Shown here piece by piece: positions 5,503 through 23,875 of a stretch of DNA of 64,000 nt (positions are counted from its first letter, which is position 1; every line of letters begins with the position of its first letter). The notes under the pieces are model-generated. The model did not search any database. It was not told where the DNA came from and saw nothing but the letters and a program-made list of their open reading frames with translations. A program made the position numbers and the translations under genes. Source of the DNA: an uncultured Chloroflexia bacterium (GTDB lineage: Bacteria > Chloroflexota > Limnocylindria > Limnocylindrales > CSP1-4); contig CAVPJO010000012.1 of the NCBI GenBank assembly GCA_963705425.1, positions 74,361 to 138,360 of the forward strand, read 5' to 3'.

Positions 5503-6300
5503 ATGACCGAGCACGTTGACACCGACCGCTATGCCGGCACCTGGGTGGTGCTGCCGACCTATGACGAGGCCGAGAACCTGGCCGGGATCTCCGCCGCCAT
5601 CCTGAGCGCCCTGCCCGGCGCCACGCTGCTCGTCGTCGATGATGCTTCGCCTGATGGCACAGGTGTGCTGGCCGACGCCCTGGCTGCCGATGAGTCGCGC
5701 ATCAAGGTGCGCCACCGGACCGGCAAGGAGGGCCTGGGCAAGGCCTACATCGATGGCTTCGCGGTGGCCCTGGAGGGTGGCGCCCAGTACATCGTCCAGA
5801 TGGACGCCGATTGGTCTCACTCCCCCGACTACCTGCCCGCGCTCATCGCTCCGCTCGAACGAGGTGCCGACCTGGTCATCGGCTCGCGCTACACGCGCGG
5901 CGGCGGCGTCCGCGACTGGGGCGTCCTGCGGCGCATCGTCTCGCGCGGCGGCTCGCTCTTCGCCAAGATCGTGCTCCGCCTGCAGCCCGGCGACCTGACC
6001 GGTGGCTTCAAGGCCTGGCGACGAGCTGCACTCGAGGCTGTCGAGTGGGGTCGTCTCCACTCAGGCGGCTACGTCTTCCAGATCGAGACGACCTACCTGG
6101 CCACTCGAGCGGGCGCCGAGGTGACCGAGGTGCCCATCGTCTTCAAGGACCGTGAGGTCGGTACCAGCAAGATGTCCAAATCCATCATCGGCGAGGCCTT
6201 GCTGGTGGTCCTCCAGCTGCGCTGGGAGGAGCTGCGCGGCCGTGGGCCGACGGCCACGCTGGTCAAGGACGACGACGAGAGCCAGGCCGCCTCTGCCTAG
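5503..6300 (+). CDS. ppm1: Polyprenol-phosphate mannose synthase (GT2, Dpm1/Ppm1-like)
   Basis: VLPTYDEAENL, VVDDASPDGTG, GKEGLGKAYIDGF, VQMDADWSHSPDYLP and DLVIGSRY are typical of the dolichol/polyprenol-P-mannose synthase catalytic domain. Confidence 0.85.
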   Translation: MTEHVDTDRYAGTWVVLPTYDEAENLAGISAAILSALPGATLLVVDDASPDGTGVLADALAADESRIKVRHRTGKEGLGKAYIDGFAVALEGGAQYIVQMDADWSHSPDYLPALIAPLERGADLVIGSRYTRGGGVRDWGVLRRIVSRGGSLFAKIVLRLQPGDLTGGFKAWRRAALEAVEWGRLHSGGYVFQIETTYLATRAGAEVTEVPIVFKDREVGTSKMSKSIIGEALLVVLQLRWEELRGRGPTATLVKDDDESQAASA

Positions 6301-6377
6301 TTGTGCGGACCCGGTTAGGCTGGGTCGTAGAGCACCCCGGTTCGTCATGACCGGGCCGAACGTGGAGAACCTGCGCC

Positions 6378-7778
6378 GTGAGTGCCGACGCGCCGCAGCC
6401 GGGACGGCTGAACATCACCATCGTCGCCGCCAACCCCTTCGAGTTCGATTCGCGATTCCTGCGTTCGGCGACCTCGCTGGCGGCCGACGGCCATCGGTTG
6501 CGCATCCTGGGCTGGTCGGCTCCGGGTCTCCCTTCGCGGGAGGAACTGGCGCCCGGCGTGGAACTGACACGGCTCGACATCGACCGTCGCATCAGCAATG
6601 CCCTCAGGCCTCTGCCCGAGCGCGTCCGTCGCGGCGTCTGCCGGCTCATCCGCCTGGACTACGACGCGCAGGTACTGCCGCCCGACATGCCACACGGCTT
6701 CGACCGCCTGCTGCACCTGGCTCGGCGCAGCCTGGAGATGATGGCCAACGCCCGTCGGGCCGGGCCCTGGGCCGACGCTGTCGTCGAGGCTGCTCCCGAG
6801 ACCGACGTCTTCCACGCCCAGTCGCTCATCGTACTGCCGGTCGTGCGTGACGCTGCGGATCGGCTGGCGGGCCGCTTCGTCTATGACGTGGCCGACTACC
6901 ATACCGAGGCTGCGCGGCTGGCCCGGATGCCCTGGATCGTGCGTGAGGTAGTGCGCCGCCGTGAGCGCGACTGGGCCCGAGACGGCGCTGGCTTCCTGGC
7001 CGTGAGCGACGCGGTGGCCGACCTGGTGGTGCGCCGCTGGGGCGTGCCTCGTCCGACCATCCTCCTGAACTGCCCGCCCGCCTGGCGCCCCAACCAGCCC
7101 GGCATCGTCGACTCCGACCGCATCCGCGAGGCCACCGGCATCGAGGCCGAACGGCCCATCGTGCTCTACCAGGGCGGTTTCTCCGTGGACCGAGGGGTCG
7201 AGGAGCTGGTTGCCGCCGCCACTGACACGCGCCTGATGGAGCGCGGCGCCGCGGTGGTGTTCATGGGCTACGGCCGGCTGGAGTCGTTCATCGCCGAGGC
7301 CGTGACCGAACACCCCGGCCGTATCTACCTGCTGCCCGCCGTCCGCCCCGACGACCTCATGCCCTGGACGGCCAGCGCCGACGTCACCTTCGTGGGCCAG
7401 CCACCGCGCACGCTGAACCAGAAGATGAACCTGCCCAACAAGCTCTTCGAATCGATCATGGCAGGGGTACCCGTGGTGGTCAGCGAGGGCAACGAGCAGT
7501 GTCGCCTCACCCGCGAGGAAGGCATCGGCGTGTGTGTCGACGTGGACGATCCCGCCGCTATCGCATCCGCCTGCGGCGATCTGCTCAGCGCACCGCTCGA
7601 GGAGCGTCGCGAGCTGCGTCGGCACTGCCGTGAGGTGGCCCTTGGCAGGTACACCTGGGACCGCACGGCCGTGGGGCTCGTCGAGCTCTACCGCAAGCTG
7701 GCCCGCGAGAGCGCACCGCCCCCGCGGGGCCACTCCATCCGCGCGGGCGGTTCGCCGCGCGATGGTGACGAGGCATGA
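6378..7778 (+). CDS. Glycosyltransferase family 4 (GT-B fold)
   Basis: C-terminal GT1/GT4 signature: LYQGGFSVDRGVEEL, then NLPNKLFESIMAGVPVVVS (the EX7E-type region). Confidence 0.8.
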   Translation: MSADAPQPGRLNITIVAANPFEFDSRFLRSATSLAADGHRLRILGWSAPGLPSREELAPGVELTRLDIDRRISNALRPLPERVRRGVCRLIRLDYDAQVLPPDMPHGFDRLLHLARRSLEMMANARRAGPWADAVVEAAPETDVFHAQSLIVLPVVRDAADRLAGRFVYDVADYHTEAARLARMPWIVREVVRRRERDWARDGAGFLAVSDAVADLVVRRWGVPRPTILLNCPPAWRPNQPGIVDSDRIREATGIEAERPIVLYQGGFSVDRGVEELVAAATDTRLMERGAAVVFMGYGRLESFIAEAVTEHPGRIYLLPAVRPDDLMPWTASADVTFVGQPPRTLNQKMNLPNKLFESIMAGVPVVVSEGNEQCRLTREEGIGVCVDVDDPAAIASACGDLLSAPLEERRELRRHCREVALGRYTWDRTAVGLVELYRKLARESAPPPRGHSIRAGGSPRDGDEA

Positions 7779-8623
7779 TGCGCTGGGCCGTGCGCGCGTT
7801 GGTGTTCGCGGTCGTCGCCGGCCTGGCCCTGGGCTCCGGTCTGGGTGTGGCCCGGGCGGCCGAGGGCGATCGCTCCATGGTCAGCCGCAGCCAGCTCACG
7901 CAGCGTCCCTACCGCGGTATCACGCTGGTGACGGTCGGCGACCGGGTCGTCTGTTCCGGTTTCGTCGTGACTCCGCGCAAGGTCGTGACCGCGGCCCATT
8001 GCCTCACCCGGGACGCCTCCAACGGCAACTACAAGTTCCGCAGGGGCCTGCCCGGCCGGTTGCGTATCTACCGCGCCTTCAGCTCTCGCTACGGCGGCTC
8101 CCGCTTCCCATCGTGCGGCGTCGCCAGGGTGTGGGCGCATGCCAAGTTCATCAAGCGGGATTCGTCCGACCGTGAGTACGGCAGCCGGGCCCATGACTAC
8201 GCCGTGCTCACCACCGAGCGTGGCTGCTCCTTCCCGCTGAGCGCTGTGACGCGCATGTGGGGCACCGAGGCCTTCGACGGCAAGCTGAACGTGGGCCAGC
8301 GGGTCGCTCTCGCCGGCTATCCAGCCGACCCACGCTACTCGGGCATGAACGGCCTGACCATGTGGCGTACCGAGGGTCGCGTCCGCCCGGTCGGAGCGGA
8401 CCCGCGCATGCTGGTCACCACCGGCTTCGTGGCCCAGGGCATGAGCGGCGCGCCGGTGTGGCGCTCGTTCGGTGCCAACTCACCCTGTGGTCGGTCGCAG
8501 TGCGCGGTCGGCATCGTCACGGAGTGCGCGGTCAACGCCAAGGGGCTGTGCAAGGCTGGCAACAGCGACCGCCTGGCGGTGCGCATCACGCCCCAGGTCA
8601 AGCGCTCCATCAAGAGGCGCTAG
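7775..8623 (+). CDS. Secreted trypsin-like serine protease (S1 family, V8/Glu-endopeptidase-like)
   Basis: Signal peptide MMRWAVRALVFAVVAGLALGSGLGVARA. Catalytic triad contexts VVTAAHCL, HDYAVL and GMSGAPVW. Its start overlaps the GT4 stop (ATGATG/TGA). Confidence 0.8.
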   Translation: MMRWAVRALVFAVVAGLALGSGLGVARAAEGDRSMVSRSQLTQRPYRGITLVTVGDRVVCSGFVVTPRKVVTAAHCLTRDASNGNYKFRRGLPGRLRIYRAFSSRYGGSRFPSCGVARVWAHAKFIKRDSSDREYGSRAHDYAVLTTERGCSFPLSAVTRMWGTEAFDGKLNVGQRVALAGYPADPRYSGMNGLTMWRTEGRVRPVGADPRMLVTTGFVAQGMSGAPVWRSFGANSPCGRSQCAVGIVTECAVNAKGLCKAGNSDRLAVRITPQVKRSIKRR

Positions 8624-8688
8624 CGAGGTCGGGAACTGCCTCTTGCGCAGCGCCCCAGGCCTGCCCTGGAACGTCACAGGAGCTGTGG

Positions 8689-9699
8689 CTAGGTGCGCAG
8701 GATCTCCTCGGTGACCTCGTCGGCGATGGCCTCGAAGTGCGGCTCGAGCGGCTCGCGCTTGGCGATGACGAGGTCGTCGGCACGCTCCAGCACGCTCATG
8801 CGGCCCTGCTCGACCAGCTCGCGGTCGACGGCCCCGAGCTGGCCTGCGAACGTGGTCCAGGTGGGCACGCCCAGTACCGCCGCCTCGCGGTTCATGGTGC
8901 CGCCGGCACTGACCATGGCGTCGGCCGCCCAGACCAGCGACGGTCCATCGACCGGCCGCTCGGGGATGATGACCCCGGCCGCAGCGGCGAACGACGCGGC
9001 CTGCTCCGGGGTCCGCGGCAGGAGCACCACTTGCGCGTCACTGTCCAGCAGCCGAGCCAGCACGTCGTCGAACACGGTGTTCTCGATGCCGCGGTGGTAG
9101 AGGCTCATGGTGGCCGGCGGCCGCAACACCACGATGGGTCGCTCGCGGTCCAGCCCGAGCTCGTCGTAGACGCTCTCGTCGGGCGAGAAGTCGGCCAGGG
9201 CCACTTGCTCCTTGAGTCCGTGATACGGCCGGTAGCGTGCCTCCGACAGCCCGTAGCCCGACAACGCCGAGTAGGGGATGACGTCCGGGGTCATGACCTT
9301 GTCGGCCAGCCGGAAGTTGATGCGATGCATGCCCGCCGCGCCTTCGTAGTCGTGCAGCACCGTGCTGTGCAGCCGCAGCACACGCGCGGTGATGGCCAGG
9401 TCGTTGGATCCGTGGCTGACCGCCTGGCTGATGCCGCGTCCGCGTCCGAAACGCATCAGCGCCGTGGAGCGCCGCACCAGGCCCAGGCCCTTGCCGGTCA
9501 CCGATGCTCCACCGTGACGGCCGATGACGGTATGGGCCATGTCGAAGCGCTGCAGCAGGCCCAGCGTCTGGGCGAAGTCGCGGGCGGTCACGACCGTATC
9601 CACGCCGGCCTCGTCGAGGCGCCGCAGCACGGGCCGGAAGAAGAGCACGTGCGGGGAGTTGGTAAGGTCGATCCAGACCTTCCGCGAAGGGGTAGCCAC
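8689..9699 (-). CDS. DUF354-family protein (predicted GT-B-like glycan biosynthesis enzyme)
   Basis: N-terminus KVWIDLTNSPHVLFFRPVLRRLDEAGVDTVVTARD matches the characteristic DUF354 opening. Divergent from wecB. Confidence 0.65.
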   Translation of the reverse strand: MATPSRKVWIDLTNSPHVLFFRPVLRRLDEAGVDTVVTARDFAQTLGLLQRFDMAHTVIGRHGGASVTGKGLGLVRRSTALMRFGRGRGISQAVSHGSNDLAITARVLRLHSTVLHDYEGAAGMHRINFRLADKVMTPDVIPYSALSGYGLSEARYRPYHGLKEQVALADFSPDESVYDELGLDRERPIVVLRPPATMSLYHRGIENTVFDDVLARLLDSDAQVVLLPRTPEQAASFAAAAGVIIPERPVDGPSLVWAADAMVSAGGTMNREAAVLGVPTWTTFAGQLGAVDRELVEQGRMSVLERADDLVIAKREPLEPHFEAIADEVTEEILRT

Positions 9700-9856
9700 C
9701 GAGCCTAGAGAGCCCCGAGTGCAGCGTCGCGAACGACGCCATCCGCTGCGATGGGGCCGTCGCGGTCGATGGGGGTCCAGTGGTCAGTCACAGCCATCGC
9801 ACTCTAGCATCGGCCGAGTCCCGGATGCGGCGCCGACGCCTCGTCGTGGGGATGGC

Positions 9857-10969
9857 ATGCTTGCGCCTATGCCTGGACTCATCCACATCGTCGGCGCGAG
9901 ACCCAACTTCATCAAGGCTGCCCCCGTCATCGCGGCCCTGCGTGCCGCCGGCGCAGAGCAGCAGGTCATCCACACCGGACAGCACTACGACCGGGCCATG
10001 TCCGTGGTCTTCTTCGAGGAACTCGGCCTGCCCGAGCCGGACGTGAACTTGGGCGTAGGCTCGGGCTCGCACGGAACGCAGACCGCGGCCCTGCTGGTGG
10101 CCCTCGAGGAAACCTTGCTGGCGCGGTCGCCCGACCGCGTGATCGTCTATGGCGACGTCAACTCCACCCTCGCAGCCGCGCTGGTGTGCGCCAAGCTGCT
10201 CATCCCGGTGGCACACGTGGAGGCCGGGCTGCGCTCGTTCGACTCGACCATGCCCGAGGAGGTCAACCGCCGCGTCACCGACCTGCTCAGCGACCCGCTG
10301 TTCGTGACCGCGCCGGAAGGGGAGCAGAACCTCGCGCGTGAGGGCGTCACCGGAGAGCGTGTCGTGTTCGTGGGCAACCCCATGATCGACACGCTGCTCA
10401 AGCACCTCGATCGCTTCGTGCCGGAGCCGGTCAAGGCACGGCTCGGGATCACGTCGCCGTACGCGGTGGCCACCCTTCACCGCCCTGCCAACGTCGACAC
10501 CCCGGAGGCTGGGGCGGCATTGGTCGGTGCGCTGCGCGAAGCTACCGCCCGGTTGCCGGTGGTGCTGCCACTGCACCCGCGCGGCCGGGCCACCCTGGCC
10601 GCCGCCGGCCTCGACGAGGTGCCCGGTCTCCGCGTGGTGGACCCACTCGGCTACATCGACTTCCTCTCGCTGGTGCGTGGTGCGGCCGCGGTCATCACCG
10701 ATTCGGGCGGCATCCAGGAGGAGACCACCGTGCTGGACGTACCCTGCCTGACGATGCGACCCAACACCGAGCGACCCATCACCCTGACGGCCGGCACCAA
10801 CCGGCTGGTCTCGCCCGGCACACTGGGCCCGGCGCTCGATGGCGCCCTGGCCGGCGCCCAGTCCCGCATCGGTGCTGGCCCGCCCGGCTGGGACGGCCAT
10901 GCCGGCGAGCGCATCGCCGCTCACCTGCTACAGCTGCCCTCCCGGACGCCCGGGTCGGTCGAAGCATGA
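9857..10969 (+). CDS. wecB: UDP-N-acetylglucosamine 2-epimerase (non-hydrolysing)
   Basis: Frame of ORF 9524..10969. IHIVGARPNFIKAAPV, HTGQHYD, VYGDVNSTLAAAL, HVEAGLRSFD..MPEEVNR and ITDSGGIQEE. Start at ATG 9857 (or 9869). Confidence 0.9.
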   Translation: MLAPMPGLIHIVGARPNFIKAAPVIAALRAAGAEQQVIHTGQHYDRAMSVVFFEELGLPEPDVNLGVGSGSHGTQTAALLVALEETLLARSPDRVIVYGDVNSTLAAALVCAKLLIPVAHVEAGLRSFDSTMPEEVNRRVTDLLSDPLFVTAPEGEQNLAREGVTGERVVFVGNPMIDTLLKHLDRFVPEPVKARLGITSPYAVATLHRPANVDTPEAGAALVGALREATARLPVVLPLHPRGRATLAAAGLDEVPGLRVVDPLGYIDFLSLVRGAAAVITDSGGIQEETTVLDVPCLTMRPNTERPITLTAGTNRLVSPGTLGPALDGALAGAQSRIGAGPPGWDGHAGERIAAHLLQLPSRTPGSVEA

Positions 10970-12051
10970 GCCGGAGGCAGAAGTCGGTCCGCGCCATCCT
11001 CATGCCCTCGTACCAGTGGAATCCCTACCAGCGTCTGCTGGCGGCGGCCCTGGTCGAGGTCGGTGTGGAGGCCACGGCGGTCCACGAGTGGTCCGCACGA
11101 TCACCCATCCTCGGCACCTGGCTGGCCCAGGGCCGCCCTGACGTCATCCACATCCAGTGGATCCACAACTTCGTCGGTGGCCGTTCGGGCACGCCCAGCA
11201 GCCGTGAGGTGCGCTGGTTCGACTATCAGCTGCGCATCGTCAAGGCCCTCGGCGCGCGTGTCGTGTGGACCGTCCACAATCTCAAGTCGCACGATTCCTC
11301 GGGCGACGACCCGCTCGATGCCAGGGCTCACCGCATCATCATCGAACGGGCTGATGCGATCATCTTCCACTGCGACTACGCGCGCCAGGCGCTCACCGAG
11401 ATGTACGGCGCCAGCGAGGCGGCACAGGGGCGCATGCACGTCGTGCCTCACGGCAACTACGTGCGCCAGTACGACGTCGACCTGGACCAGGCAGAAGCGC
11501 GCGAGGCCCTGGGCCTGCCGGCCGGGGGCACCGTCTTCGCCTTCGTCGGCTCCATCCGTGGCTACAAGAACGTGGGCGAGCTGCTCGACGCGTTCGCGCG
11601 TGTGCCCGGGATCGGGCCCGACGACCGGCTACTCGTGTGTGGCAAGCCGTTGCCGCGGAAGCTCGGGCGTGACCTGGAGAAGACCGCCGGTGATGACCCG
11701 CGCATCGTGCTGCGCCTCGACCGCGTGCCGGAGGAGGACCTCTCGCGCATCCTGCGCGCCTCCGACGTGGCGGTCATGCCCTTCCGCGACATCCTCACCT
11801 CGGGCAGCGTCATCCTCGCGTTGAGCCACGGGCGACCGGTCATCGCCCCGGCCAAAGGCTGCCTGCCGGGTACCATGCCCCCCGACGCCACGTTCCTGTA
11901 CGACCCGGACGCTCCGGACGCGCTGCGTGATGCCATCAGCGCGGCCGCCGCGGCAGACCTCGCGGCCATGGGCGCGCGCGCGCGCGCCTTCGCCGATACC
12001 ATCGACTGGGGTCCCATCGCCGAAGAGACGGCTGCGCTGTATCGCGGCTAG
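10966..12051 (+). CDS. Glycosyltransferase family 4
   Basis: FAFVGSIRGYKNVGELLDAF and RASDVAVMPFRDILTSGSVILALSHGRPVIAP (GT-B C-terminal domain). ATGA overlap with the wecB stop. Confidence 0.8.
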   Translation: MSRRQKSVRAILMPSYQWNPYQRLLAAALVEVGVEATAVHEWSARSPILGTWLAQGRPDVIHIQWIHNFVGGRSGTPSSREVRWFDYQLRIVKALGARVVWTVHNLKSHDSSGDDPLDARAHRIIIERADAIIFHCDYARQALTEMYGASEAAQGRMHVVPHGNYVRQYDVDLDQAEAREALGLPAGGTVFAFVGSIRGYKNVGELLDAFARVPGIGPDDRLLVCGKPLPRKLGRDLEKTAGDDPRIVLRLDRVPEEDLSRILRASDVAVMPFRDILTSGSVILALSHGRPVIAPAKGCLPGTMPPDATFLYDPDAPDALRDAISAAAAADLAAMGARARAFADTIDWGPIAEETAALYRG

Positions 12052-12114
12052 CGACGCTCCACGCAGCGGGCCACTCGTCGCTGGGTCGCGCTCGAGGAGC
12101 GACGCGCCCCGCGG

Positions 12115-12921
12115 CTACGTGGTCCTGGCTGTGGCCGCCCTGCTCGCCCCGGTCTGCTCCCCCGCGATCTCGACGAGACGCTGGTAGGTCCGCTCCACCT
12201 CGTCCGGCAGCTTCATCTCCTTCGGCGCGCCGGGAGTGCGCAGCGAGCCGTCGAAGAAGGCGTTGCCCGCTTCCGGCGTCGGGAGGCGCAGCTCGGTGAT
12301 GAGCTCCTTGAGCCGCACCTGATACTTGTCGGTCGGCTGGCCGAAGTCGATGAGCGGCACATAGCGAGACTCGCACAGCTCGAGCATGGGCTTGCAGTAG
12401 TCGAGCCACACGCTCAGCCAGCGCTCGGGGCCATCGCTGCCGTGGCGGCGTGCCAGCGAGCGAGCCACCGCGGCCGGGTGCCGGAAGGTGGCCACCATCT
12501 CGAGATCGGGCAGCACCTCCAGCCAGTGCTCGATGACGAGGATGGTGCGTGGGTCCTTGAAGCCCCAGAGCGGCACCTTCGAACGACTCTCGATGAAGCG
12601 TTCCAGGCGCTTGCGGGTCGCTGCCGGCCAGGTGATGTGCTCGGGCACGCTCGACCAGCTGCCGCCGCTGTTGATGAGCACGTCATCGTGGATACGCATG
12701 AGGACGGGCGATTCGCGATTGCCCTTCTCGTTCCACTGGTTGCCGGTATCGACCGCACCCATGTCCAGGCCGGAGGCTTCGAGGCTGCCGGCCAGGCTGC
12801 TGGTACCGCTGCGATGCATGCCCAGGATGGCCAGCACGCGCGTGGGACCGTCGTATGCGGGCGCCCGCGAGCCGGCGGGGCGTCGCGCCAAACGCGTCAG
12901 TGAGCTGCGCAACGAACCCAT
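12115..12921 (-). CDS. PAPS-dependent sulfotransferase family protein
   Basis: 5'-PSB loop LAILGMHRSGTSSLAG and 3'-PB-like WGFKDPRT. Last gene of the wzm-wzt operon. Its ATG at 12921 lies 2 nt after the wzt stop. Confidence 0.8.
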   Translation of the reverse strand: MGSLRSSLTRLARRPAGSRAPAYDGPTRVLAILGMHRSGTSSLAGSLEASGLDMGAVDTGNQWNEKGNRESPVLMRIHDDVLINSGGSWSSVPEHITWPAATRKRLERFIESRSKVPLWGFKDPRTILVIEHWLEVLPDLEMVATFRHPAAVARSLARRHGSDGPERWLSVWLDYCKPMLELCESRYVPLIDFGQPTDKYQVRLKELITELRLPTPEAGNAFFDGSLRTPGAPKEMKLPDEVERTYQRLVEIAGEQTGASRAATARTT

Positions 12922-12923
12922 GG

Positions 12924-15214: not shown

Positions 15215-15305
15215 GGACGGTCTAGACGGTAGCAGACGTGCGTCGATTCCCGTTGCCGCGCCTGCTACCGCCGGCGGTCGCTCGGATGTGCTCAGGTGTG
15301 TTCGA

Positions 15306-16667: not shown

Positions 16668-16759
16668 CTGCCCCCCTTCGAGACGAGTGTCCTGCTCACG
16701 ATTATCCGCCTCGTGTCTGCCCCCGACCCTCCACGGCGCCGCGTCGCATCCGGCCCTGA

Positions 16760-16765
16760 TACAGT
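16760..16765 (+). promoter_or_regulatory. TAnnnT -10 box (TACAGT) positioned for a leaderless sulfotransferase transcript
   Basis: TACAGT, then 7 nt, then GTG 16773. No SD in between. Confidence 0.3.
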
Positions 16766-16772
16766 CGGCCGC

Positions 16773-18062
16773 GTGACCAGCCCGACCTCCCAGCCCGTGT
16801 TCGTGGTCGGCGGCCCGCGATCAGGAACGACGCTGCTATCAGCCATGCTGGCCGCGCACTCGGCCTTCGACTGTGGCCCCGAGACGCACTTCCTTTCGCG
16901 CTGGGCGCGCATGGCCCGCAGCGAGCGCGAGCACATCCTCGATCCCGCCGACTGGCCCGAGCGGGCCACCGCCTACGTGGCCAGCCTGTCACTGGGCAAG
17001 CGGCCCGTCTACCCGATGTATGACCTCGCGCTCGAGGAGGTCCGTGCCTGGCTGGCTGTGCGGCCGCCGTCGCTGACGGCCATGCTCGAGTCACTGACGG
17101 CGCAGCGGGCCTTGCGCAACGGCGCCCTGCGCTGGGTCGAGAAGACGCCGCGCCACCTCGAGGTGCCAGAGCTCATCGTCGAGACCTGGCCGGGGGCGCG
17201 CATCGTGCGCATCGTGCGCGATCCTCGCGATGCTGCCGTGTCGCTCACCAAGGTGCCTTTCGGTACGCCTTCGCTGCTCACCAATCTGTCCGTGCTCGCG
17301 CGTATGAACGAGGCCGCGGCCGACTTCTATCGCGAGTCGAGCCGGGCCTTGACGGTCCGATACGAGGACCTCGTGGCCTCGCCCGAGCACGAGCTGCATC
17401 GCATCTGTGAGTTCGTGGACGTCGACTTCGAGCCCCGCATGGTCGAGGACCGCAGCAGCGCGACGGGCGTGGCCGCAGTCCACGAGTGGTGGAAGGGCGA
17501 CGCCACCGGGCCTCTCGACCGCTCTCGTTCGGGCCGCTGGGCCGAGGAGATGCCGCCCGAGGTGCAGCACTACGCGGCGCTCAACCTGGGGCCCATGCTC
17601 GAGGAGCACGGCTACGCCACGGCGGTGCCGCCCAAGCGGCAGCTGGCCATCGTGCCCGCCGGCGACGCCCTCAACGCCCGCTATGACCACGTCCTGCTGC
17701 AGCTGGCCGCGGCCGACGTGGCCATCCGCCGGCCCATTCCCGCCACCATCGACGAGCTGCACCTGCAGCAGCCGCTGGTCTTCTTCGGTGTCGTCGGCCA
17801 GCTCGATCCTCATCGGGACCGCTCGGCCGAGCGACGCGTCGTCGATATCGCACGACTCACGCTCCTGCTGCTGACCCGTCGATTGCAGCGCCGGCCCGTG
17901 GTCTGGGTGCGTCGCCTCAGCCTCATCCGCCGCCACCCCAACGACGGCGGGGAGCGCTTCATCGCCCGCCTGCTGCAGATGCTGGCGGTGTCCGCGGAGG
18001 CCGGCGATCTGCCTGGCCTGGTGGGTGCTGAGACCGAGGTGCAGGGCACGGCCAGTGACTGA
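16773..18062 (+). CDS. Sulfotransferase (Sulfotransfer_3-like) with a ~170-aa C-terminal extension of unknown function
   Basis: VFVVGGPRSGTTLLSAML (PAPS 5'-phosphosulfate loop) and VRIVRDPRDAAVS. GTG at 16773 lies 7 nt after a TACAGT -10-like box. ORF track start 16713 is the alternative. Confidence 0.8.
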   Translation: MTSPTSQPVFVVGGPRSGTTLLSAMLAAHSAFDCGPETHFLSRWARMARSEREHILDPADWPERATAYVASLSLGKRPVYPMYDLALEEVRAWLAVRPPSLTAMLESLTAQRALRNGALRWVEKTPRHLEVPELIVETWPGARIVRIVRDPRDAAVSLTKVPFGTPSLLTNLSVLARMNEAAADFYRESSRALTVRYEDLVASPEHELHRICEFVDVDFEPRMVEDRSSATGVAAVHEWWKGDATGPLDRSRSGRWAEEMPPEVQHYAALNLGPMLEEHGYATAVPPKRQLAIVPAGDALNARYDHVLLQLAAADVAIRRPIPATIDELHLQQPLVFFGVVGQLDPHRDRSAERRVVDIARLTLLLLTRRLQRRPVVWVRRLSLIRRHPNDGGERFIARLLQMLAVSAEAGDLPGLVGAETEVQGTASD

Positions 18063-19317
18063 CGCTCCCATCTTCGTGGTCGGCGTGCCCCGTTCGGGGA
18101 CGACGCTGCTGGCCGCCATGCTGGCGGCCCACTCACGGCTCGACTGTGGTCCCGAGTCCCGGTTCTTCGCTCGCTACCGCCACCTTGGGCCCAGGCAGCG
18201 GGCGCGCATCCTCGATCCCATGGAGTGGCCGCGGCCGGCGGTCGACTTCATCGCCTCGCTGCGCAACCAGGACCATCCCATCTCCGAGCTCTTCGGCCTC
18301 GGGTTGCCCCAGATCGGCTCGTTCCTGGCCGAGCGCCAGCCCTCGGAGGTGGCCATGCTCGAGGCGCTCACCGTGCTGCATGCGCGCGGGGCCGGCAAGG
18401 CACGCTGGATCGAGAAGACGCCACGCCACCTGCTCATGACCGAGTGGCTGCGGCGGCTCTGGCCCGAGGCCTTCATCGTGCGCATCGTGCGCGACCCGCG
18501 CGACGTGGCGCTGTCGCTCTCGGGCGTGCCCTTCGGCAAGGAGTCAGTGGTCGGCAACCTGGTCCGCATCGACGCGGACGACCGCGCCTCCGCTGAGCGT
18601 ATCGAGACCGACCCGCTGGCCATGACCCTGCGCTACGAGGACCTCGTCACCGATCCCGAGCGCGAGCTGCGACGCGTCTGCGACTTCGTGGGTGAGGACT
18701 TCGAGCCGGCCATGCTCGACTCGAGTGCGTCAGGCGCCGGGGTGGCCGGCGAGCACGAGTGGTGGAAGGCGTCCGTTTCCGGGCCGCTCCACACCAGCAG
18801 CGTGGGCCGATGGCGCGAGGAGATGTCCGCCGACGCTCGCCGGTTCGCAGCGCTGCACCTGGCCGGCTACCTGCGGATCCATGGCTACGAGGGTGCGCGC
18901 GAAGCCCGTGCCCAGCTGGCCGTGCTGCCGGTGTCCGGCGAGGTCGGGCCACAGAACGAGGTGCTGCTGCTGGAGCTGGCCCGCCGCGACATGACCGTCG
19001 TCCGCCCGGCACCATCGACCCCCTCCGCGCAACATGCACAGCGGCATCTCGTCTTCGTCGGCGTCAAGGGCCAGCTCGACCCGACCCGTGGTCAGCCGGC
19101 CGCCCGGCGCGTCCTGGGCACGGCCATGCTCAGCGCAGGCCTGCTCGCGCGCCGGCTCCAGCGCCGGCCCGTGCTTTGGGTCCGCCGGGCCACGCTTCGT
19201 GAGCGTAGCCAAACCGACCCCGCCGAGCGACTCCTGGCGCTGCTGCTGCGGCCGCTGGCCCGCACCGTCGCCCTCGATGCGGTCCCGTCGCTCGTCGACG
19301 ATGCTCCCCTCGAGTAG
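18055..19317 (+). CDS. Sulfotransferase paralogue (tandem duplicate of the 16773 gene) with the same C-terminal extension
   Basis: IFVVGVPRSGTTLLAAML and VRIVRDPRDVALS. The C-terminal region aligns with its neighbour (GQLDP..., RRLQRRPVLWVRR). GTG 18055 overlaps the upstream stop by 8 nt. Confidence 0.8.
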   Translation: MTDAPIFVVGVPRSGTTLLAAMLAAHSRLDCGPESRFFARYRHLGPRQRARILDPMEWPRPAVDFIASLRNQDHPISELFGLGLPQIGSFLAERQPSEVAMLEALTVLHARGAGKARWIEKTPRHLLMTEWLRRLWPEAFIVRIVRDPRDVALSLSGVPFGKESVVGNLVRIDADDRASAERIETDPLAMTLRYEDLVTDPERELRRVCDFVGEDFEPAMLDSSASGAGVAGEHEWWKASVSGPLHTSSVGRWREEMSADARRFAALHLAGYLRIHGYEGAREARAQLAVLPVSGEVGPQNEVLLLELARRDMTVVRPAPSTPSAQHAQRHLVFVGVKGQLDPTRGQPAARRVLGTAMLSAGLLARRLQRRPVLWVRRATLRERSQTDPAERLLALLLRPLARTVALDAVPSLVDDAPLE

Positions 19318-20337
19318 GTGGACGACCTGCTCACGAGCGATGACCTCTTCGAGGCGTCCGGTCGCTACGGCTACCTGCACCCGGGCTATGCCGAGGCCTA
19401 CCTGGAAGCCGGCGAGGTCCGACACCTCCGCCGCAGCGGGGCCTGGATGCTCACCCGCGCCATCCCCGGCAGCGAGCGCAAGGACGCGCTCATCGGCCAC
19501 CCCAAGCTTGTCTGCCGCGACTGGTCTGCCCTGTCGGATGACCTCATCGAGACGGCAGCGCTGGCCGACGTGGTGACCGTCAGCGCGCTGACCGATCCGC
19601 TCGCCCAGGTCAGCGAGCAAGCACTGCGGGAGGCCTTCCCCGATGTGCTGCGCATCCACGCCCAGCACTACGTGGTCGATCTGGCCACCTTCTGGCCAGC
19701 TCGGGCCCACCGCCGGGCCATGCGCCGCGCGATGCAGCTCGTGGACATCGACATCGAGGACTCGGCCGAGGGCCGGCTCGACGACTGGGCTCGCCTCCGG
19801 CACCGGCTCGGCACGACTGGCGAGGGGGCCGCCGCCATCGAGCTCTCGCGTGAGGCCCTCGAGCGCCAGGTCGGCGTGCCCGGTTGCGTCGGCCTCACCG
19901 CGCTGGCCGAGGACGGGCCGGTCGCCTTCGCCATCGTCTACGTCAGCGGTGACGACGCCCATCTACACACCATGGCCAGCAGCGACCGAGGCGAGGAGCT
20001 GGGCGCGCGCTTCGCCTTGATCGGGGCAGCGGTGGAGGACATGGCCGGTCGCGGGCTGCGCTGCCTTGACCTGGGTACCATCCCGACGAGCGCGAACGCC
20101 GACGCGGCGGCGACCGCGGCGGCTGCCGCCTTCATGGACGGCTGGACCGAGCTGCTGCGGCCGTCGTACCTCTGCGGCCGCATCGTCGATCGCCTCGCCT
20201 ACGACGAGCTGGCGGCCGGGGCCGGCACCGTCGGCAGTGCCGCCTTTCCGGCCTACCGCGACCGCGACGCTAGACTCGGCGCGGGTGCGACCCACGAGCC
20301 CGGCCCTGACGAGCCAGACGATGGAGGACGTGCATGA
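19318..20337 (+). CDS. FemAB/CelD-like GNAT-fold acyl- or aminoacyl-transferase (Acetyltransf_6-like), tentative
   Basis: Weak family-level resemblance (ARAHRRAMRRAMQLVDIDIE; HLHTMASSDRGEELGARFALIGAAVEDMAGRGLRCLDLG). GTG start directly follows the sulfotransferase stop. The 3' end overlaps rmlB (ATGA). Confidence 0.4.
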   Translation: MDDLLTSDDLFEASGRYGYLHPGYAEAYLEAGEVRHLRRSGAWMLTRAIPGSERKDALIGHPKLVCRDWSALSDDLIETAALADVVTVSALTDPLAQVSEQALREAFPDVLRIHAQHYVVDLATFWPARAHRRAMRRAMQLVDIDIEDSAEGRLDDWARLRHRLGTTGEGAAAIELSREALERQVGVPGCVGLTALAEDGPVAFAIVYVSGDDAHLHTMASSDRGEELGARFALIGAAVEDMAGRGLRCLDLGTIPTSANADAAATAAAAAFMDGWTELLRPSYLCGRIVDRLAYDELAAGAGTVGSAAFPAYRDRDARLGAGATHEPGPDEPDDGGRA

Positions 20338-21380
20338 GGATCCTGGTCACCGGCGGGGCCGGCTTCATCGGCTCCACCTTCGTGCATCGCCGCCTGGCCG
20401 GTACGGACGACTCGATCATCGTGGTCGACAAGCTCACTTACGCCGGCAACCCGGCCAACCTGACCGGCCTCGCCGACGACGCTGCCACCCGCGAGCGGTA
20501 CCGCTTCGTCCAGGCCGACATCGCCGACGGGCCCCTGATGAAGGAGCTTGCGGCCGAATGCGATGCCATCGTCAACTTCGCCGCCGAATCGCACGTCGAC
20601 CGCTCCATCCTCGAGCCCACCGCGTTCCTGCGTACCGGCGTCATGGGTGTGTATGCCCTGCTCGAGGCTGCCCGCACGCAGTCGGCGGAGCGCGACGGGG
20701 CCTTCCGCCTGCTGCAGGTCTCGACCGACGAGGTCTACGGCCCGGTCGCGGAGGGGCTCTCTGTGGAGACCGATCCCATCCGGCCGACCAGCCCATACAG
20801 TGCGGCCAAGGCCGCCGGCGAGCACCTGGTAGCGGCCTATCACGAGACCTACGGCCTGGACACCGTCATCACCCGTGGGGCCAACACCTACGGGCCCTAC
20901 CAATACCCCGAGAAGCTCATCCCGCTGTTCATCACCAACGCGCTCGACGACGAGCCCCTGCCCATGTATGGCGACGGCATGCAGCGCCGCGACTGGCTGT
21001 TCGCGGCCGACCACGCCGACGGCATCGGCGTGGCGCTCGATGAAGGCGAGCCCGGTACCGCCTACAACGTCTGTGGTGATGGCATCGAGCGGCCCAACCG
21101 GGCCGTGACCGAGGCCATCCTCGAGCACCTCGGCAAGCCCTGGTCGTTGGTGCGCACGGTGCCCGACCGGCCGGGGCACGATCGCCGCTATGCGCTCGAC
21201 GGCTCACGGTTGCGTGGGCTGGGTTGGGAACCGCGCACCTCGTTCGGGGACGGCATCGCACTCACCATCGACTGGTACGCGGCGCGGCGCGATTGGTGGG
21301 AGCCCATCAAGAGCGGCGACTGGCACGACTACTACCGGCAGCAGTACGCCTGGCGCCTCGAGCAGTCGGAGGACGCCTGA
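20334..21380 (+). CDS. rfbB: dTDP-glucose 4,6-dehydratase
   Basis: MRILVTGGAGFIGSTFV, STDEVYG, YSAAKAAGEHL, and C-terminal PGHDRRYALD. GGAGG lies 7 nt upstream of the ATG. Confidence 0.93.
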   Translation: MRILVTGGAGFIGSTFVHRRLAGTDDSIIVVDKLTYAGNPANLTGLADDAATRERYRFVQADIADGPLMKELAAECDAIVNFAAESHVDRSILEPTAFLRTGVMGVYALLEAARTQSAERDGAFRLLQVSTDEVYGPVAEGLSVETDPIRPTSPYSAAKAAGEHLVAAYHETYGLDTVITRGANTYGPYQYPEKLIPLFITNALDDEPLPMYGDGMQRRDWLFAADHADGIGVALDEGEPGTAYNVCGDGIERPNRAVTEAILEHLGKPWSLVRTVPDRPGHDRRYALDGSRLRGLGWEPRTSFGDGIALTIDWYAARRDWWEPIKSGDWHDYYRQQYAWRLEQSEDA

Positions 21381-21506
21381 GCGAGGTCCGCTGTCGCCTC
21401 CGCCAGCCCAGCGGGCACGCCTGACGCGGGCGTGAGGCGCTAGACTGCGGCGGCGTGCCCGAGCGTCGCAGATGCCCTTTCCGAGTGGCGCCCCTCGGAC
21501 GCGCCC

Positions 21507-23331
21507 GTGACACGACCGACACCGGAGAATCGTCCTCGCATGACCTCGCCGAAAGAACCACCGAAGGAGTCACTCCGTGACCGCGTCTCGACCCGTCTTT
21601 CGACGGACAAGAGAGGTCGTGCCATCGATGCCGATGCGCGTCATACGCGCAACGTGTCGTGGATGTTCTACGGGATCATCGTGGTCGTCGTGGTCATCAT
21701 CGTCGGTGGCCTCATCTACGGCTTCTATGAAGCCAATATCAAGCCCCTCGCCAACGTCGATGGCACCGAGGTCGCCCGTGGCGAGTGGCAAGACCGCCAG
21801 AAGCTCGAGCAGTTCCGGGCCGATCGCGCCGAGTCGGTGATCAGCCGGGGCATCGCCGAGGGCAGCATCGACGCCGACCTCGCCAACCGCCGCTTCACGA
21901 ACGCGCAGAACGGGCTCCCGGCCACCAACGCCGAGATCATGGCCGAGCTGGTCGACCTGATCTACGCGAAGCAGCTCGCGGCTGAGGCGGGTGTCGTGCT
22001 CAGCGAGGCCGACCTGGAAGAGGCGCTGGCCGCCGACGGCACGTTCCCCGAGGCGCGCCTGGTCGAGCTGCTGGTCGTGCTCACCCCTGAGCAGGAGGCC
22101 GGAGCCGCAGCCACGGATGCCGGCATCGCCGACGCGCGCGAGCGCGCCACGGCCATCGTCGCCGAGCTGGAGGCGGGCGGCGAATCCCGAGGCGGCCGTC
22201 GAGACCTACGGGCCGGCCAACTACGAGTCCGGGGCCATCACCAAGGACGATGTCAGCGACGCGGCCTGGGCCGCCGAGGTCTTCACCCTCGAAGAAGACG
22301 GCATCAGCTCCGTCATCGAGGCCGACACCGGTGAGCAGCTCATCGGCATCGTGACCACCATCTACCCGGCCGAGGCCGATCCCGGCTTCCTCGAGGCGGT
22401 CAACGATGAGGTCGGTGAGGAGATACACCGCCGCAACGTCGAGCTCGAGGCCACGGCCGCCACGCTCGAGGAACGGATCACCGCGGAGGCGCTGGCGGCC
22501 GAGTACGACCAGGTCAAGCTGGCCGAGATCTTCATCGAGCGCAGCTCCAGCAGCACCGATGACACGGCCGCTGAGGCTCACGTCAGCCACATCCTGTACC
22601 AGCCCGAGACCCCTCTCGACGAGGAGGGCAACCCCACCGCGCTGGACGATCTTCCCGCCGACGATCCGGCGTGGGCCGATGCCCAGCTCGAGGCCGAGCG
22701 GGCCGCCCGACAGCTGGCCGCCGTCGACGACATCGAGGCGCGCATGGACGCATTCGCCCAGCGCGCCCGGCGCGACAGTGACGGTCCCACTGCGCCCCAG
22801 GGCGGCGACCTCGGCTACTTCCCCGAGGGCTTCATGGTCACCGAGTTCAACGACGCCATCTGGGACTCGATGGACGCGCAGCGAGGCGACATCATCGGCC
22901 CGGTACGTACCCCGTTCGGCTGGCACGTCATCCTCTTCGATGAGTTCCGCTCCTCGCTCGACGTCCGAGTCGCCGAGGCGCAGGCGGCCCTGGCCGAAGA
23001 TGGTGCTGATTTCGCGACGGTCGCAGCAGAGCACTCCGACGGTCCGGAGGCCGCTGCCGGTGGCGAGATCGGCTGGCAGCTCGTCGACGAGCTCGATGAT
23101 CTGACGGTGCTGGCGCTGTCCGCCATCGAGATCGGTGAGACCACTGAGCCCTCTGACGAAGGCTTCGGCTACCGCATCTACCAGAAGCAGGACGAGGGCA
23201 CCCGCCCGCTGGAGCCGGCCGACGCCGCCGACGTGGCCGAGACCGCCTACGTCGAGTGGTTCGACGAGCGCTTCTTCGCTGCCGAGGAGGAGGGCCGCAT
23301 CAGCATCGACGACTCCGTCTATGAGCAGTAG
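21507..23331 (+). CDS. Membrane-anchored PpiC/parvulin-type peptidyl-prolyl isomerase (SurA/PrsA-like); frame interrupted near 22180
   Basis: ORF 21507..22334 supplies the TM (YGIIVVVVVIIVGGLIYGF) and a SurA_N-like region up to ...IVAELEAGG. ORF 21991..23331 continues as NPEAAVETYGP... and holds the parvulin core GGDLGYFPEGFMVTEFNDAIW...GPVRTPFGWHVILFDE. Start could be ATG 21540. Confidence 0.75.
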
Positions 23332-23875
23332 CGAAGTGGCCGAGCGCGGCGCCTGCATCTGGTTCACGGGGCTCTCCGGCTCCGGCAAGTCGACCACCGC
23401 GGAGGCGCTGGTGCCGCTGCTGGAGGCGCGTGGCCGCACGGTCACCGTGCTCGACGGCGACGTGGTGCGCACCCACCTCACCAGCGAGCTGGGCTTCTCC
23501 AGGGAGGATCGCGACACCAACGTGCGCCGTGTCGGCTACGTGGCCGCCCAGATCGTGCGCCACGGCGGCCTGGTCGTGGCCGCGCTGGTGAGCCCCTATC
23601 GCGAGACCCGCGCGGAGGTCCGCGAGATGGTCGGCGAGGGCTACATCGAGGTCTTCGTGGACACGCCGCTGACGATCGTCGAGGAGCGCGACGTGAAGGG
23701 CTGGTACGCCAAGGCGCGCAGCGGCGAGGTCGAGGGGTTCACCGGGGTGTCCGATCCCTACGAGCCGCCGCTCGACCCCGAGATCACGCTGCTCACGACC
23801 GAGACCACGCCGGGAGCCAACGCGCAGCTGGTGGTGGAGTACCTGGAGTCGCGCCGCATCCTCGTCCCGGCCTAG
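23321..23875 (+). CDS. cysC: Adenylylsulfate (APS) kinase
   Basis: Frame of ORF 23135..23875. ERGACIWFTGLSGSGKSTTAEAL (P-loop), LDGDVVRTHL, FSREDRDTNVRRVGYVA and SPYRETR. Confidence 0.92.
   Translation: MSSSEVAERGACIWFTGLSGSGKSTTAEALVPLLEARGRTVTVLDGDVVRTHLTSELGFSREDRDTNVRRVGYVAAQIVRHGGLVVAALVSPYRETRAEVREMVGEGYIEVFVDTPLTIVEERDVKGWYAKARSGEVEGFTGVSDPYEPPLDPEITLLTTETTPGANAQLVVEYLESRRILVPA

Follow-up and report, generated by a model that had tools for sequence, protein, structure and literature searches.

Does an uncultured lineage of Chloroflexota sulfate a glycan of its cell envelope, and by which route would such a glycan be built and exported? The question is raised by a 64,000-nucleotide stretch of DNA (assembly GCA_963705425.1, contig CAVPJO010000012.1, positions 74,361 to 138,360 of the forward strand), hereafter called the window, in which genes for glycosyltransferases (GTs), sugar-nucleotide synthesis, a Wzm/Wzt-type ATP-binding cassette (ABC) exporter, sulfotransferases and the adenosine 5'-phosphosulfate (APS) kinase CysC lie close together. 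We examined positions 5503–23875, together with a block at 36.8–41.3 kb that holds a GT61–sulfotransferase fusion and rml genes. With fair confidence, and judging from gene content and homology, we read the locus as a predicted ABC-transporter-dependent pathway for a sulfated envelope glycan with N-acetylmannosamine (ManNAc) or N-acetylmannosaminuronic acid (ManNAcA), in a member of the Limnocylindria that is predicted to have a single membrane. An earlier note on this DNA had proposed a pathway for a sulfated glycoconjugate. Its gene content, its sulfotransferase families and the GT61 fusion stand, while its idea of sulfate as a terminator or export signal finds no support and its actinobacterial premise falls away.

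Sulfotransferases of the cluster

Because the window has a GC content of about 69%, genes were called from third-codon-position GC and then scanned against Pfam and NCBIfam; every gene listed in the earlier note was found where it had been placed. The core sulfotransferase genes, ST1 (16713–18062) and ST2 (18025–19317), lie on the plus strand and match PF13469 (Sulfotransfer_3) with 120.3 and 107.6 bits, respectively, against a cutoff of 27. They are tandem paralogs of the same architecture, with about 50% identity and the motifs kept in a pairwise alignment. The residues invariant in 30 homologs of ST1 are: Arg36-Ser37-Gly38-Thr39-Thr40 of the 5'-phosphosulfate-binding (PSB) motif; Glu57 in a 'CGPET' motif like that of the protein-tyrosine sulfotransferases (TPSTs); and Arg169...Ser177 of the 3'-phosphate-binding (PB) motif. 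ST2 carries the same PSB, catalytic Glu and PB motifs, and its only NCBIfam match is a weak one to NoeE (52 bits). Proteins of the window were also searched with tblastn against related loci, numbered L001–L032. Both genes occur in 24 of these, with median identities of 81% (ST1) and 69% (ST2), and ST2 is duplicated in L008, L012 and L014.

The AlphaFold (AF2) model of ST1 has a predicted local distance difference test score (pLDDT) of 81 and a predicted TM-score (pTM) of 0.80. In a Foldseek search of the PDB, all 68 matches at E ≤ 1e-3 are sulfotransferases; the top match is TPST2 (3e-10), with TM-scores of at most 0.67 when normalised by target length, and further matches are the OLS and CurM sulfotransferase domains, TPST1, and the mycobacterial Stf9 and Stf1. 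As judged by this model, ST1 has a sulfotransferase fold. Residues ~309–436 (window positions 17635–18020) form an extra C-terminal alpha/beta domain of five strands, which is confidently modelled and has an equivalent in ST2; the Foldseek search gave no match to it beyond the sulfotransferase core and found no family for it.

The homolog search with ST1 returned close relatives (61–100% identity) and no distant contexts. Distant Chloroflexota/Limnocylindrales metagenome-assembled genomes (MAGs) hold loci of their own (L024 9896–17118 and L026 763–8387), in which three Sulfotransfer_3 genes, distantly homologous to ST1 and ST2, are interleaved with genes for ManC, phosphomannomutase and PGI. 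Both loci adjoin a gene for S-adenosylmethionine synthetase, and L024 also one for S-adenosylhomocysteine hydrolase; their content suggests a sulfated, mannose-containing product.

The third candidate, ST3w (12115–12927, minus strand), is a divergent protein of the Sulfotransfer_3 type. Since its own PF13469 score (24.3 bits) is under the cutoff of 27, it is assigned to the sulfotransferases through its homolog family, which comprises 1,105 members; among the 120 listed, PF13469 is found in about one third, and NCBI names two as sulfotransferases. ST3w itself has a PSB-like 'GMHRSGTSS' and a PB-like 'FRHPAAVARS' motif. The gene is found in 9 loci, in one or two copies, and is missing from more than half of the related genomes; it is thus an accessory gene with variable presence.

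The fourth candidate (36797–38803, plus strand; 668 residues, with a frameshifted 3' end) joins a GT61 half to a domain of the Sulfotransfer_2/Gal-3-O-sulfotransferase type (residues ~420–620). As the earlier note had described, it stands beside the rml genes, with rmlD, rmlC and rmlA adjacent on the minus strand. The N-terminal half matches GT61 with 25.6 bits, and nearly all homologs among the matches listed carry PF04577. The C-terminal domain was not recognised by direct searches: neither the domain alone nor the whole protein gave a Pfam match to it even at E ≤ 10, NCBIfam and PDB phmmer searches with the C-terminal half were without a match, and pairwise BLASTP against a relative bearing PF03567 aligned the PB motif only (E = 0.039). 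Profile methods place it. A profile built from 16 close homologs matches the heparan sulfate 6-O-sulfotransferase HS6ST3 in the PDB (E = 3.2e-4) over three collinear motif blocks, and an exhaustive profile search collected 9,574 cluster representatives, mostly stand-alone proteins of 240–290 amino acids. Among 81 sampled relatives, 73 match both PF03567 (Sulfotransfer_2) and PF06990 (galactose-3-O-sulfotransferase), and hhalign between the alignment of the domain and that of its relatives gives a probability of 100% (E = 7.7e-67, 225 columns). The 50 matches listed by Foldseek for a model of this half (pLDDT 80, the C-terminal end missing) are weak ones to P-loop kinase-like folds (E ≥ 2e-3), with no sulfotransferase in the list. 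As judged by profile comparison, the C-terminal half of the fusion belongs to the Sulfotransfer_2/Gal-3-O-sulfotransferase family.

A carbohydrate-type sulfotransferase domain fused to a GT61 enzyme ties sulfation to a sugar acceptor, and the joining of carbohydrate-type sulfotransferases to GT61, by fusion or by adjacency, is the strongest single argument that the sequences offer for such an acceptor. The fusion lies 13–20 kb downstream of cysC in relatives as well, and in one of them (L032) its neighbors are rmlD and rmlC, both intact, together with GH26 genes, Bac_transf and a sortase gene. GT61 relatives elsewhere (P0041, P0053, P0095, P0067, P0068, P0096, P0028, P0029 and P0119) are fused to Methyltransf_24, to an N-terminal Sulfotransfer_3 or to a different Sulfotransfer_2 domain. 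The union of GT61 with a modifying domain thus looks like a recurrent modular design.

Taken together, profile evidence places all four candidates inside sulfotransferase families: ST1 and ST2 by PF13469, ST3w by its homolog family and the fusion by profile–profile alignment. Placement of the candidates outside these families is what the earlier note had named as telling against its proposal. That note had also taken sulfation to be cytoplasmic and dependent on 3'-phosphoadenosine 5'-phosphosulfate (PAPS). Hydropathy reveals no membrane or signal segment in any of the four proteins, and the lack of hydrophobic segments in the sulfotransferases and in CysC fits cytoplasmic action.

Export, sugar supply and conservation of the locus

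Adjacent genes for an ABC-2 permease and its ATPase sit inside the glycosyltransferase cluster, on the minus strand. The Wzm/TagG-like permease (14234–~15214) matches PF01061 with 34.9 bits against a cutoff of 26.9, its translation shows hydrophobic segments, and it has 306 amino acids in L029. The Wzt/TagH-like ATPase (12924–14234; PF00005) starts at Met43 of a longer open reading frame (ORF). Stop and start codons overlap along the wzm–wzt–ST3w operon, and ST3w is its last gene, with a start that overlaps the wzt stop. The best NCBIfam matches of Wzt stay below their cutoffs (TagH, 210 bits against 538; galactan Wzt/RfbE, 173 against 400), as do the weak matches of Wzm to galactan Wzm (40 bits against a cutoff of 380) and to KpsM. 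From these scores we assign the exporter to the TagGH/Wzm–Wzt class only, short of equivalog level. Pfam scans of the window turned up no flippase or polymerase of the Wzx/Wzy families.

Beyond its ATPase domain, Wzt ends in a tail of about 130 residues (12924–~13320) that is basic, low in complexity and rich in Lys, Arg and Ala. In the tail a 'KRKxKQLxKHGK...ARKxGTL' segment is conserved, and the low-complexity part after it is variable and rich in Ala, Gln and Asp. It is kept in kind among relatives and varies in length, being much shorter in L029 (Wzt of 336 amino acids). Neither Pfam and NCBIfam scans nor reading of the sequence revealed a Wzt_C or other domain after the ATPase. A cap-binding function for this C-terminus was considered and dropped, as the sequence is low-complexity and basic and not a folded beta-sandwich.

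The cluster has genes for GT2 and GT4 enzymes and for a DUF354 protein. The first is a GT2 gene (5503–6300, plus strand; PF00535, 94 bits) of the polyprenyl-phosphate sugar synthase type, with a median identity of 84% in 6 related loci. Its NCBIfam matches (AglJ, 58 bits; PpgS, 49 bits; ArnC) are weak and far below the cutoffs, and the label ppm1 that it had been given is therefore not established. Two genes encode GT4 enzymes, both on the plus strand: GT4a (6378–7778; PF13692, PF00534; median identity 85% in 12 loci) and GT4b (10966–12051; PF13692, PF00534, PF13439; 70% in 21 loci). DUF354 (8689–9699, minus strand; PF04007, 169 bits) keeps wecB as its neighbor and has a median identity of 85% in 19 loci. 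A sequence search found no relative of it in the PDB; the family, whose function is obscure, has been predicted to adopt a glycosyltransferase-like fold (PMC4520260).

Several genes serve precursor supply. WecB, a non-hydrolysing UDP-GlcNAc 2-epimerase (ORF 9524–10969, plus strand), matches TIGR00236 with 281 bits against 210 and PF02350 with 318 bits; the TIGR00236 alignment begins at residue 120, and the true start is probably near 9870. RmlB, the dTDP-glucose 4,6-dehydratase (20334–21380, plus strand), reaches 404 bits against 365 for TIGR01181, has a median identity of 84% and is absent from the L029/L030 lineage. The remaining rml genes lie on the minus strand in the distal block: rmlD (~38795–39680; RmlD_sub_bind) and rmlC (~39697–40280; a three-frame reading), which are readable only across several frames, and rmlA (40516–~41289; NTP_transferase), which has no canonical start codon. 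When the RmlD and RmlC proteins of L032, which are intact there, were used as tblastn queries, each was found in at least two frames in the window. A FemAB/CelD-type GNAT (Acetyltransf_6; 19318–20337, plus strand) matches PF13480 with 31.7 bits against a cutoff of 22 and is encoded in 15 of about 23 loci, but not in L029/L030; by its family it is probably an acyl- or aminoacyl-decorating enzyme, and an accessory gene.

The relatives differ in one further sugar gene. A WecC-like UDP-sugar dehydrogenase of 450 amino acids lies between DUF354 and wecB in L002, L004, L005, L007, L011, L013, L015–L022 and L029; it is absent from the window (~9700–9870) and from L003, L009, L010 and L012, and a 54-residue remnant is left in L008. 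With this gene in about 15 related loci and none in the window, the sugar is probably ManNAcA in most relatives and ManNAc here, which would imply a ManNAcA/ManNAc polymorphism in the polymer.

In the comparison of synteny that the earlier note had suggested as a check, tblastn recovered one gene order in about 23 species-level genomes: GT2, GT4a, peptidase, DUF354, WecB, GT4b, a variable slot, Wzt, Wzm, ST1, ST2, an optional GNAT, RmlB, peptidyl-prolyl isomerase (PPIase), CysC, MazG, RNase PH, Ham1 and PfkB. With such recurrence, chance cannot account for the grouping. For the core genes GT2, GT4a, DUF354, WecB, ST1 and RmlB, the median identity to the window is 81–85%; for Wzm, Wzt, GT4b and ST2 it is 69–74%, and it is lower for the accessory genes ST3w (55%, 9 loci) and GNAT (61%, 15 loci). 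The housekeeping neighbors CysC, MazG/RNase PH, Ham1 and PfkB stand at 77–80%, so that the core cluster genes are conserved at or above their level. Packing is tight, with a spacing of 0 nt between ST2 and GNAT and of −4 nt between GNAT and rmlB, and ST1 is divergent from wzm–wzt–ST3w. A cleaner contig comes from the L029/L030 lineage, whose ST1 is 61% identical; its order is GT4a, peptidase, DUF354, WecC-like, WecB, GT4b, Wzt, Wzm, ST1, ST2, PPIase, CysC, MazG, RNase PH, Ham1, Bac_transf, an unknown gene and sortase.

The slot between GT4b and wzt is where the genomes vary. In six relatives it holds one or two ST3w genes beside a GT61 gene (31–44 bits against a cutoff of 27), and in three others (L008 3180–7420, L012 3480–7470 and L014 2580–7470) an unrelated island takes the place of the GT61 and sulfotransferase genes. 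The island encodes ArsR, an ArsP-type permease, an SBF/ACR3-like transporter and a TauE/SafE family protein.

ST1 relatives on one-genome-per-species contigs (65–87% identity) all come from Chloroflexota MAGs labelled 'uncultured Chloroflexia' or 'Candidatus Limnocylindrales', an order that NCBI taxonomy places in the class Candidatus Limnocylindria of the phylum Chloroflexota. The host is thus a Chloroflexota bacterium of the class Limnocylindria, and an actinobacterial origin is ruled out, as all close relatives are MAGs of this group. The lineage is reported to have no genes for outer-membrane synthesis and is probably monoderm (bioRxiv 10.1101/2021.08.23.457424). An outer-membrane setting, with the product as O-antigen or capsule, was first suggested by SurA_N, FlgD_ig and CHU_C matches; we set it aside because outer-membrane genes are reported absent, sortase genes lie near the locus in relatives, and the PPIase looks like an anchored protein of the PrsA type. 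In relatives a Bac_transf gene, which encodes an initiating phosphoglycosyl transferase, a gene for an NMT1-like protein of about 500 amino acids and a sortase gene are grouped near the glycan genes (L030 10774–14203; L032 17327–21875, there with DUF4012 added); the whole group lies outside the window.

Two genes whose products have a hydrophobic segment are embedded in the cluster. A trypsin-like serine peptidase (7775–8623, plus strand; PF13365, 49.7 bits), with a hydrophobic segment at residues 1–29, keeps its position in 15 loci at a median identity of 62% and is also present in L029. The PrsA-like PPIase gene (21507–23331, plus strand) encodes SurA_N and parvulin domains and a predicted hydrophobic anchor. 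It is read by tblastn in two frames, which marks a frameshift in the assembly; Pfam matches fall on both pieces, and the gene is a single ORF of 587 amino acids in L029 and L030. It is tied to the cluster by position and looks like a PrsA-type anchored protein from its sequence. An ELWxxDGT-repeat gene with a secreted product (15306–16667, minus strand; TIGR04534, 9 repeats, 406 bits) stands between wzm and ST1; of about 25 related loci L001 alone shares it with the window, and it was therefore ruled out as a part of the pathway.

The state of the assembly limits what can be said of single genes. Besides the PPIase gene, a solute-binding protein gene (31043–32669) and a beta-lactamase-family gene (35564–36756) are split, and mazG and rph (23892–25799) are fused in frame in the window and separate, with an ATGA overlap, in L030. 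Defects are especially dense at 38.6–41.3 kb (38600–41300), where rmlD, rmlC and the 3' end of the GT61 fusion are affected; their cause could be true gene decay or a poor consensus where strains vary. Since the defects are of the indel type and split matches are also seen in many related MAG loci, pseudogene calls are unsafe. Rfam and tRNA scans of the window gave no match.

Three further observations concern the surroundings. Directly 3' of mreB and mreC, and 5' of the glycan cluster, lies a gene (3417–5495, plus strand) for a 692-residue protein that combines a hydrophobic segment at the N-terminus with FlgD_ig, CHU_C-like and PKD-like domains. At 48903–53546 a polysaccharide deacetylase gene on the minus strand adjoins a gene for a 1,057-residue AMP-binding/carrier-protein/acyltransferase fusion (50373–53546), and the pair could serve an envelope lipid or acylation function. 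Finally, an ORF at 61701–63998 (plus strand), which runs past the end of the window, combines type I phosphodiesterase/nucleotide pyrophosphatase and prokaryotic phospholipase A2 domains.

The proposed pathway and competing explanations

We propose that the locus works as follows. Genes outside the window would convert sulfate to APS, and CysC would phosphorylate APS to PAPS. WecB would supply UDP-ManNAc, and the WecC-like enzyme of most relatives would give UDP-ManNAcA; RmlA, RmlB, RmlC and RmlD would supply a dTDP-6-deoxyhexose. The chain would be built on a polyprenyl-phosphate carrier, on the cytoplasmic side of the membrane, by GT4a, GT4b, a GT61 enzyme and probably DUF354, after priming by a transferase from outside the window (relatives have a nearby Bac_transf gene). 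The core enzymes ST1 and ST2, and the accessory ST3w and GT61–sulfotransferase fusion, would O-sulfate the sugars with PAPS, and the FemAB/CelD-type GNAT would add a further decoration. Wzm/Wzt, of TagG/TagH-like type, would export the finished lipid-linked glycan, which would then presumably be attached to the wall or held on a lipid anchor. The sequences themselves show the families of the proteins, the fold (by its model) and active-site motifs of ST1, the operon-like packing and the conservation in about 23 genomes; we infer the acceptor, the sugar composition, the order of the steps and the final location of the product.

Several observations weigh against this proposal. Pfam and tblastn searches of the window gave neither an initiating transferase nor an LCP or other ligase, and Pfam and NCBIfam scans found no sat, cysD/N or cysH in it; ATP sulfurylase genes (sat or cysD/N) were equally absent from the 10-kb flanks of the relatives. 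Breakage of the consensus-indel type affects several genes of the window, including the frameshifted rmlC and rmlD, and leaves the state of individual genes uncertain. Among solved structures, ST1 and ST2 are nearest to protein-tyrosine sulfotransferases and to sulfotransferase domains of polyketide pathways, and not to carbohydrate sulfotransferases, and it is from gene context only that a sugar acceptor is proposed for the two. The cysC gene stands in a same-strand housekeeping run (PPIase, MazG, RNase PH, Ham1) whose synteny is equally conserved, and common descent, not function, may be the reason for its position. To our knowledge, no member of the lineage has been cultured.

The last of the genomic points leads to the explanation that survives best beside ours, namely that a sulfated glycan is made and that cysC belongs to the housekeeping block PPIase–cysC–mazG–rph–rdgB by position only, its product being the general APS kinase of assimilation through PAPS reductase. 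We put its probability only a little short of even. The gene itself (23321–23875, plus strand) is a genuine APS kinase gene, as had been claimed: it matches TIGR00455 with 207.4 bits against 138.7 and PF01583 with 198.7 bits, and its P-loop 'GLSGSGKST' is intact. It keeps its position in 21 loci, and in L030 as well. The earlier note had described cysC as lying just downstream of the sulfotransferases; about 4 kb separate it from ST2, with the GNAT, rmlB and PPIase genes between. Its ATG at 23321 overlaps the PPIase stop (junction ATGAGCAGTAG), so that the two are translationally coupled, and mazG follows after 16 nt. Synteny of the entire block, as far as PfkB, matches that of the glycan genes. 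No second gene of the PAPS pathway (sat, cysD/N or cysQ) was found in the window, whereas a sulfated-capsule cluster of Vibrio carries cysC, cysN and cysD as second copies (PMC11641403). Genes of assimilatory sulfate reduction, specifically sat and those for assimilatory sulfite reduction, are reported to be common in the Limnocylindria group (10.1101/2021.08.23.457424).

On the other side, in the most divergent lineage examined ST2 directly precedes PPIase and cysC and the intervening genes are gone, which means that the link between ST2 and cysC survives their loss. Depending on the type of cysH, the gene could also still be dispensable for assimilation. The earlier note had argued from actinobacteria that a CysC of this kind serves metabolite sulfation; this framing fails with the host assignment, as the mycobacterial argument from APS reductase cannot simply be transferred to a bacterium that is not an actinobacterium.

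Two other explanations leave cysC aside and concern the product, and we regard both as improbable, to about the same degree. According to the first, ST1 and ST2 act like TPSTs, on the tyrosines of a protein or peptide that is secreted or belongs to the envelope, or else on a lipid or small molecule, and their adjacency to glycan genes is accidental. Their best sequence and fold matches are TPST1/2, with the catalytic Glu in 'CGPET', followed by the CurM and OLS domains; they carry the extra alpha/beta domain; and the conservation of a secreted peptidase and an anchored PPIase inside the cluster would fit protein maturation. Against this, PF13469 also includes the carbohydrate sulfotransferase NodH (PMC11625862), and the NCBIfam match of ST2 is to a Nod-factor sulfotransferase. 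ST1 is divergently paired with wzm–wzt in all genomes examined, distant homologs are interleaved with genes of GDP-mannose synthesis, the other two sulfotransferases are linked to GT61 by fusion or adjacency, and no candidate gene for a Tyr-rich substrate is conserved in the locus. We count a protein or peptide acceptor as a serious though less likely alternative.

According to the second, the product is not a polymer but a sulfated glycolipid, that is, a short lipid-borne glycan flipped to the outer leaflet by the ABC-2 transporter. The cluster offers only three or four candidate chain-building transferases, the scans found no polymerase and nothing that would regulate chain length, the GT2 is similar to synthases of polyprenyl-phosphate sugars, domains of the PF06990 type include glycolipid sulfotransferases, and the window holds the AMP-binding/carrier/acyltransferase fusion described above. 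Against this, ABC-dependent polymers are commonly made by a few processive GT4-type enzymes. In addition, Wzm and Wzt are closest to exporters of teichoic acid and galactan polymers, and no lipid-synthesis gene is conserved inside the cluster.

Least probable of all, and in our view very improbable, is the suggestion of the earlier note that sulfate acts as a chain-terminating cap or export signal, like the methyl or phosphate caps read by Wzt in systems of the E. coli O9a type: ST3w does close the wzm–wzt operon, in a variable slot where GT61 genes are also found and whose products could act on chain ends, and the strongly basic tail of Wzt could in principle contact an anionic chain, but this tail varies in length, is of low complexity and has neither a Wzt_C-type nor another beta-sandwich carbohydrate-binding domain, so that the cap would lack its expected reader, ST3w is missing from most of the relatives in which wzm and wzt are always present, and no WbdD-type coiled-coil terminator was found.

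Known systems and biological meaning

The closest counterpart of the proposed sulfated-glycan pathway is the capsule cluster of Vibrio sp. KMM 8419, which comprises rmlABCD, three sulfotransferases and the second copies of cysC, cysN and cysD, and whose sulfated product has been solved by nuclear magnetic resonance (NMR) (PMC11641403). The two share an ABC transporter, GT2, GT4 and GT61 (DUF563) enzymes, rml genes, several sulfotransferases and cysC. According to its authors, PAPS genes and sulfotransferases in one polysaccharide cluster are the hallmark of sulfated polysaccharide synthesis (PMC11641403); of these, sulfotransferases and cysC are present here, but ATP sulfurylase genes were found neither in the window nor in the 10-kb flanks of relatives, and cysC may be a housekeeping gene. 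The Vibrio cluster belongs to a bacterium with two membranes, exports through KpsMTDE, is associated with mobile elements and varies between strains. Unlike it, the Limnocylindria locus has a host with a predicted single membrane, a TagGH/Wzm–Wzt-like exporter, cysC alone, a lineage-wide core and one sulfotransferase fused to GT61.

Cyanobacteria offer a second comparison. The synechan (xss) cluster of Synechocystis PCC 6803, described by Maeda et al. (PMC8205485), is of the Wzx/Wzy type and has two sulfotransferases; like the predicted cyanobacterial exopolysaccharide clusters with sulfotransferases, it places sulfotransferases of PF13469, PF03567 or PF00685 among glycosyltransferases (PMC8205485). 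Synechan synthesis relies on Wzx, Wzy, a polysaccharide co-polymerase (PCP) and an outer-membrane export protein (OPX), is plasmid-borne and is under two-component regulation, whereas scans of the window gave no flippase, polymerase or co-polymerase. ABC-type clusters with sulfotransferases have also been predicted in cyanobacteria (PMC8205485), and an Actinoplanes Wzx/Wzy cluster has two sulfotransferases, its product being unverified (PMC13390465).

With the wall teichoic acid and secondary wall polymer pathways of monoderm bacteria the locus would share cytoplasmic assembly on a polyprenyl carrier, an MnaA/WecB epimerase and ABC-2 export of the TagG/TagH class. The epimerase and the exporter class are all that is common, as scans of the window gave no TagO, TagA, TagB/F, TagD or LCP ligase, and the anionic groups, which are phosphodiesters in wall teichoic acid, would be sulfate esters here. 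The Wzm–Wzt O-antigen systems of E. coli O9a and Klebsiella likewise finish the glycan in the cytoplasm and have modification genes adjoining wzm–wzt; their own features, a cap-reading C-terminal domain of Wzt and a chain-length terminator of the WbdD type, were not found here.

Among single enzymes, NodH, NoeE, KpsS and Stf0/Stf1/Stf9 resemble the proposed sulfotransferases in performing PAPS-dependent sulfation of envelope glycolipids or polysaccharides in the cytoplasm, and Stf1 and Stf9 are among the fold matches of ST1. The window enzymes differ from these rhizobial and mycobacterial ones in their low identity, in scores far below equivalog cutoffs and in the extra C-terminal alpha/beta domain of ST1 and ST2. 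TPST1/2, the closest solved structures to ST1 and ST2, have the 'PRSGTT' PSB and 'CGxET' Glu motifs in common with them at an identity of just 20–22%, but are eukaryotic Golgi enzymes acting on peptides, whereas ST1 and ST2 stand in a context of glycan assembly and export.

How much of this is new? The earlier note called the architecture poorly described. Our literature searches found no paper joining Limnocylindria to sulfotransferases or Wzt to sulfotransferases, and no direct precedent for sulfated secondary cell wall polymers, but the statement holds only in part, as the pathway logic had already been described through the Vibrio sp. KMM 8419 capsule (PMC11641403) and the cyanobacterial ABC-type clusters (PMC8205485). 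Novelty lies in the phylum of the host, in a TagGH-like exporter placed in a predicted monoderm bacterium, in a locus conserved as part of the core, and in the fusion of GT61 with a sulfotransferase. Such fusions, and the stand-alone family around them with its ~9,600 cluster representatives, also provide biotechnology with candidate carbohydrate sulfotransferases.

Sulfated polysaccharides are often called rare in bacteria outside cyanobacteria (PMC8205485, PMC13390465). Judged by its genes, the locus is a credible sulfated-glycan cluster with a predicted product, and would extend such polysaccharides to the Chloroflexota, where they would be a core trait, conserved in an uncultured lineage that is abundant in soil and freshwater, and not a strain-variable capsule. 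A more specific picture, which we hold to be rather unlikely though worth stating, is that of a lineage-wide Limnocylindria wall glycopolymer with ManNAc or ManNAcA that would draw its charge from sulfate esters and not from phosphodiesters, a phosphorus-sparing 'sulfo-teichoic' polymer whose surface would be diversified by the slot for GT61 and sulfotransferase genes. If the polymer is indeed linked to the wall, it would bear on how single-membrane bacteria without classical teichoic acids come by an anionic wall, and on the sparing of phosphorus in nutrient-poor habitats.

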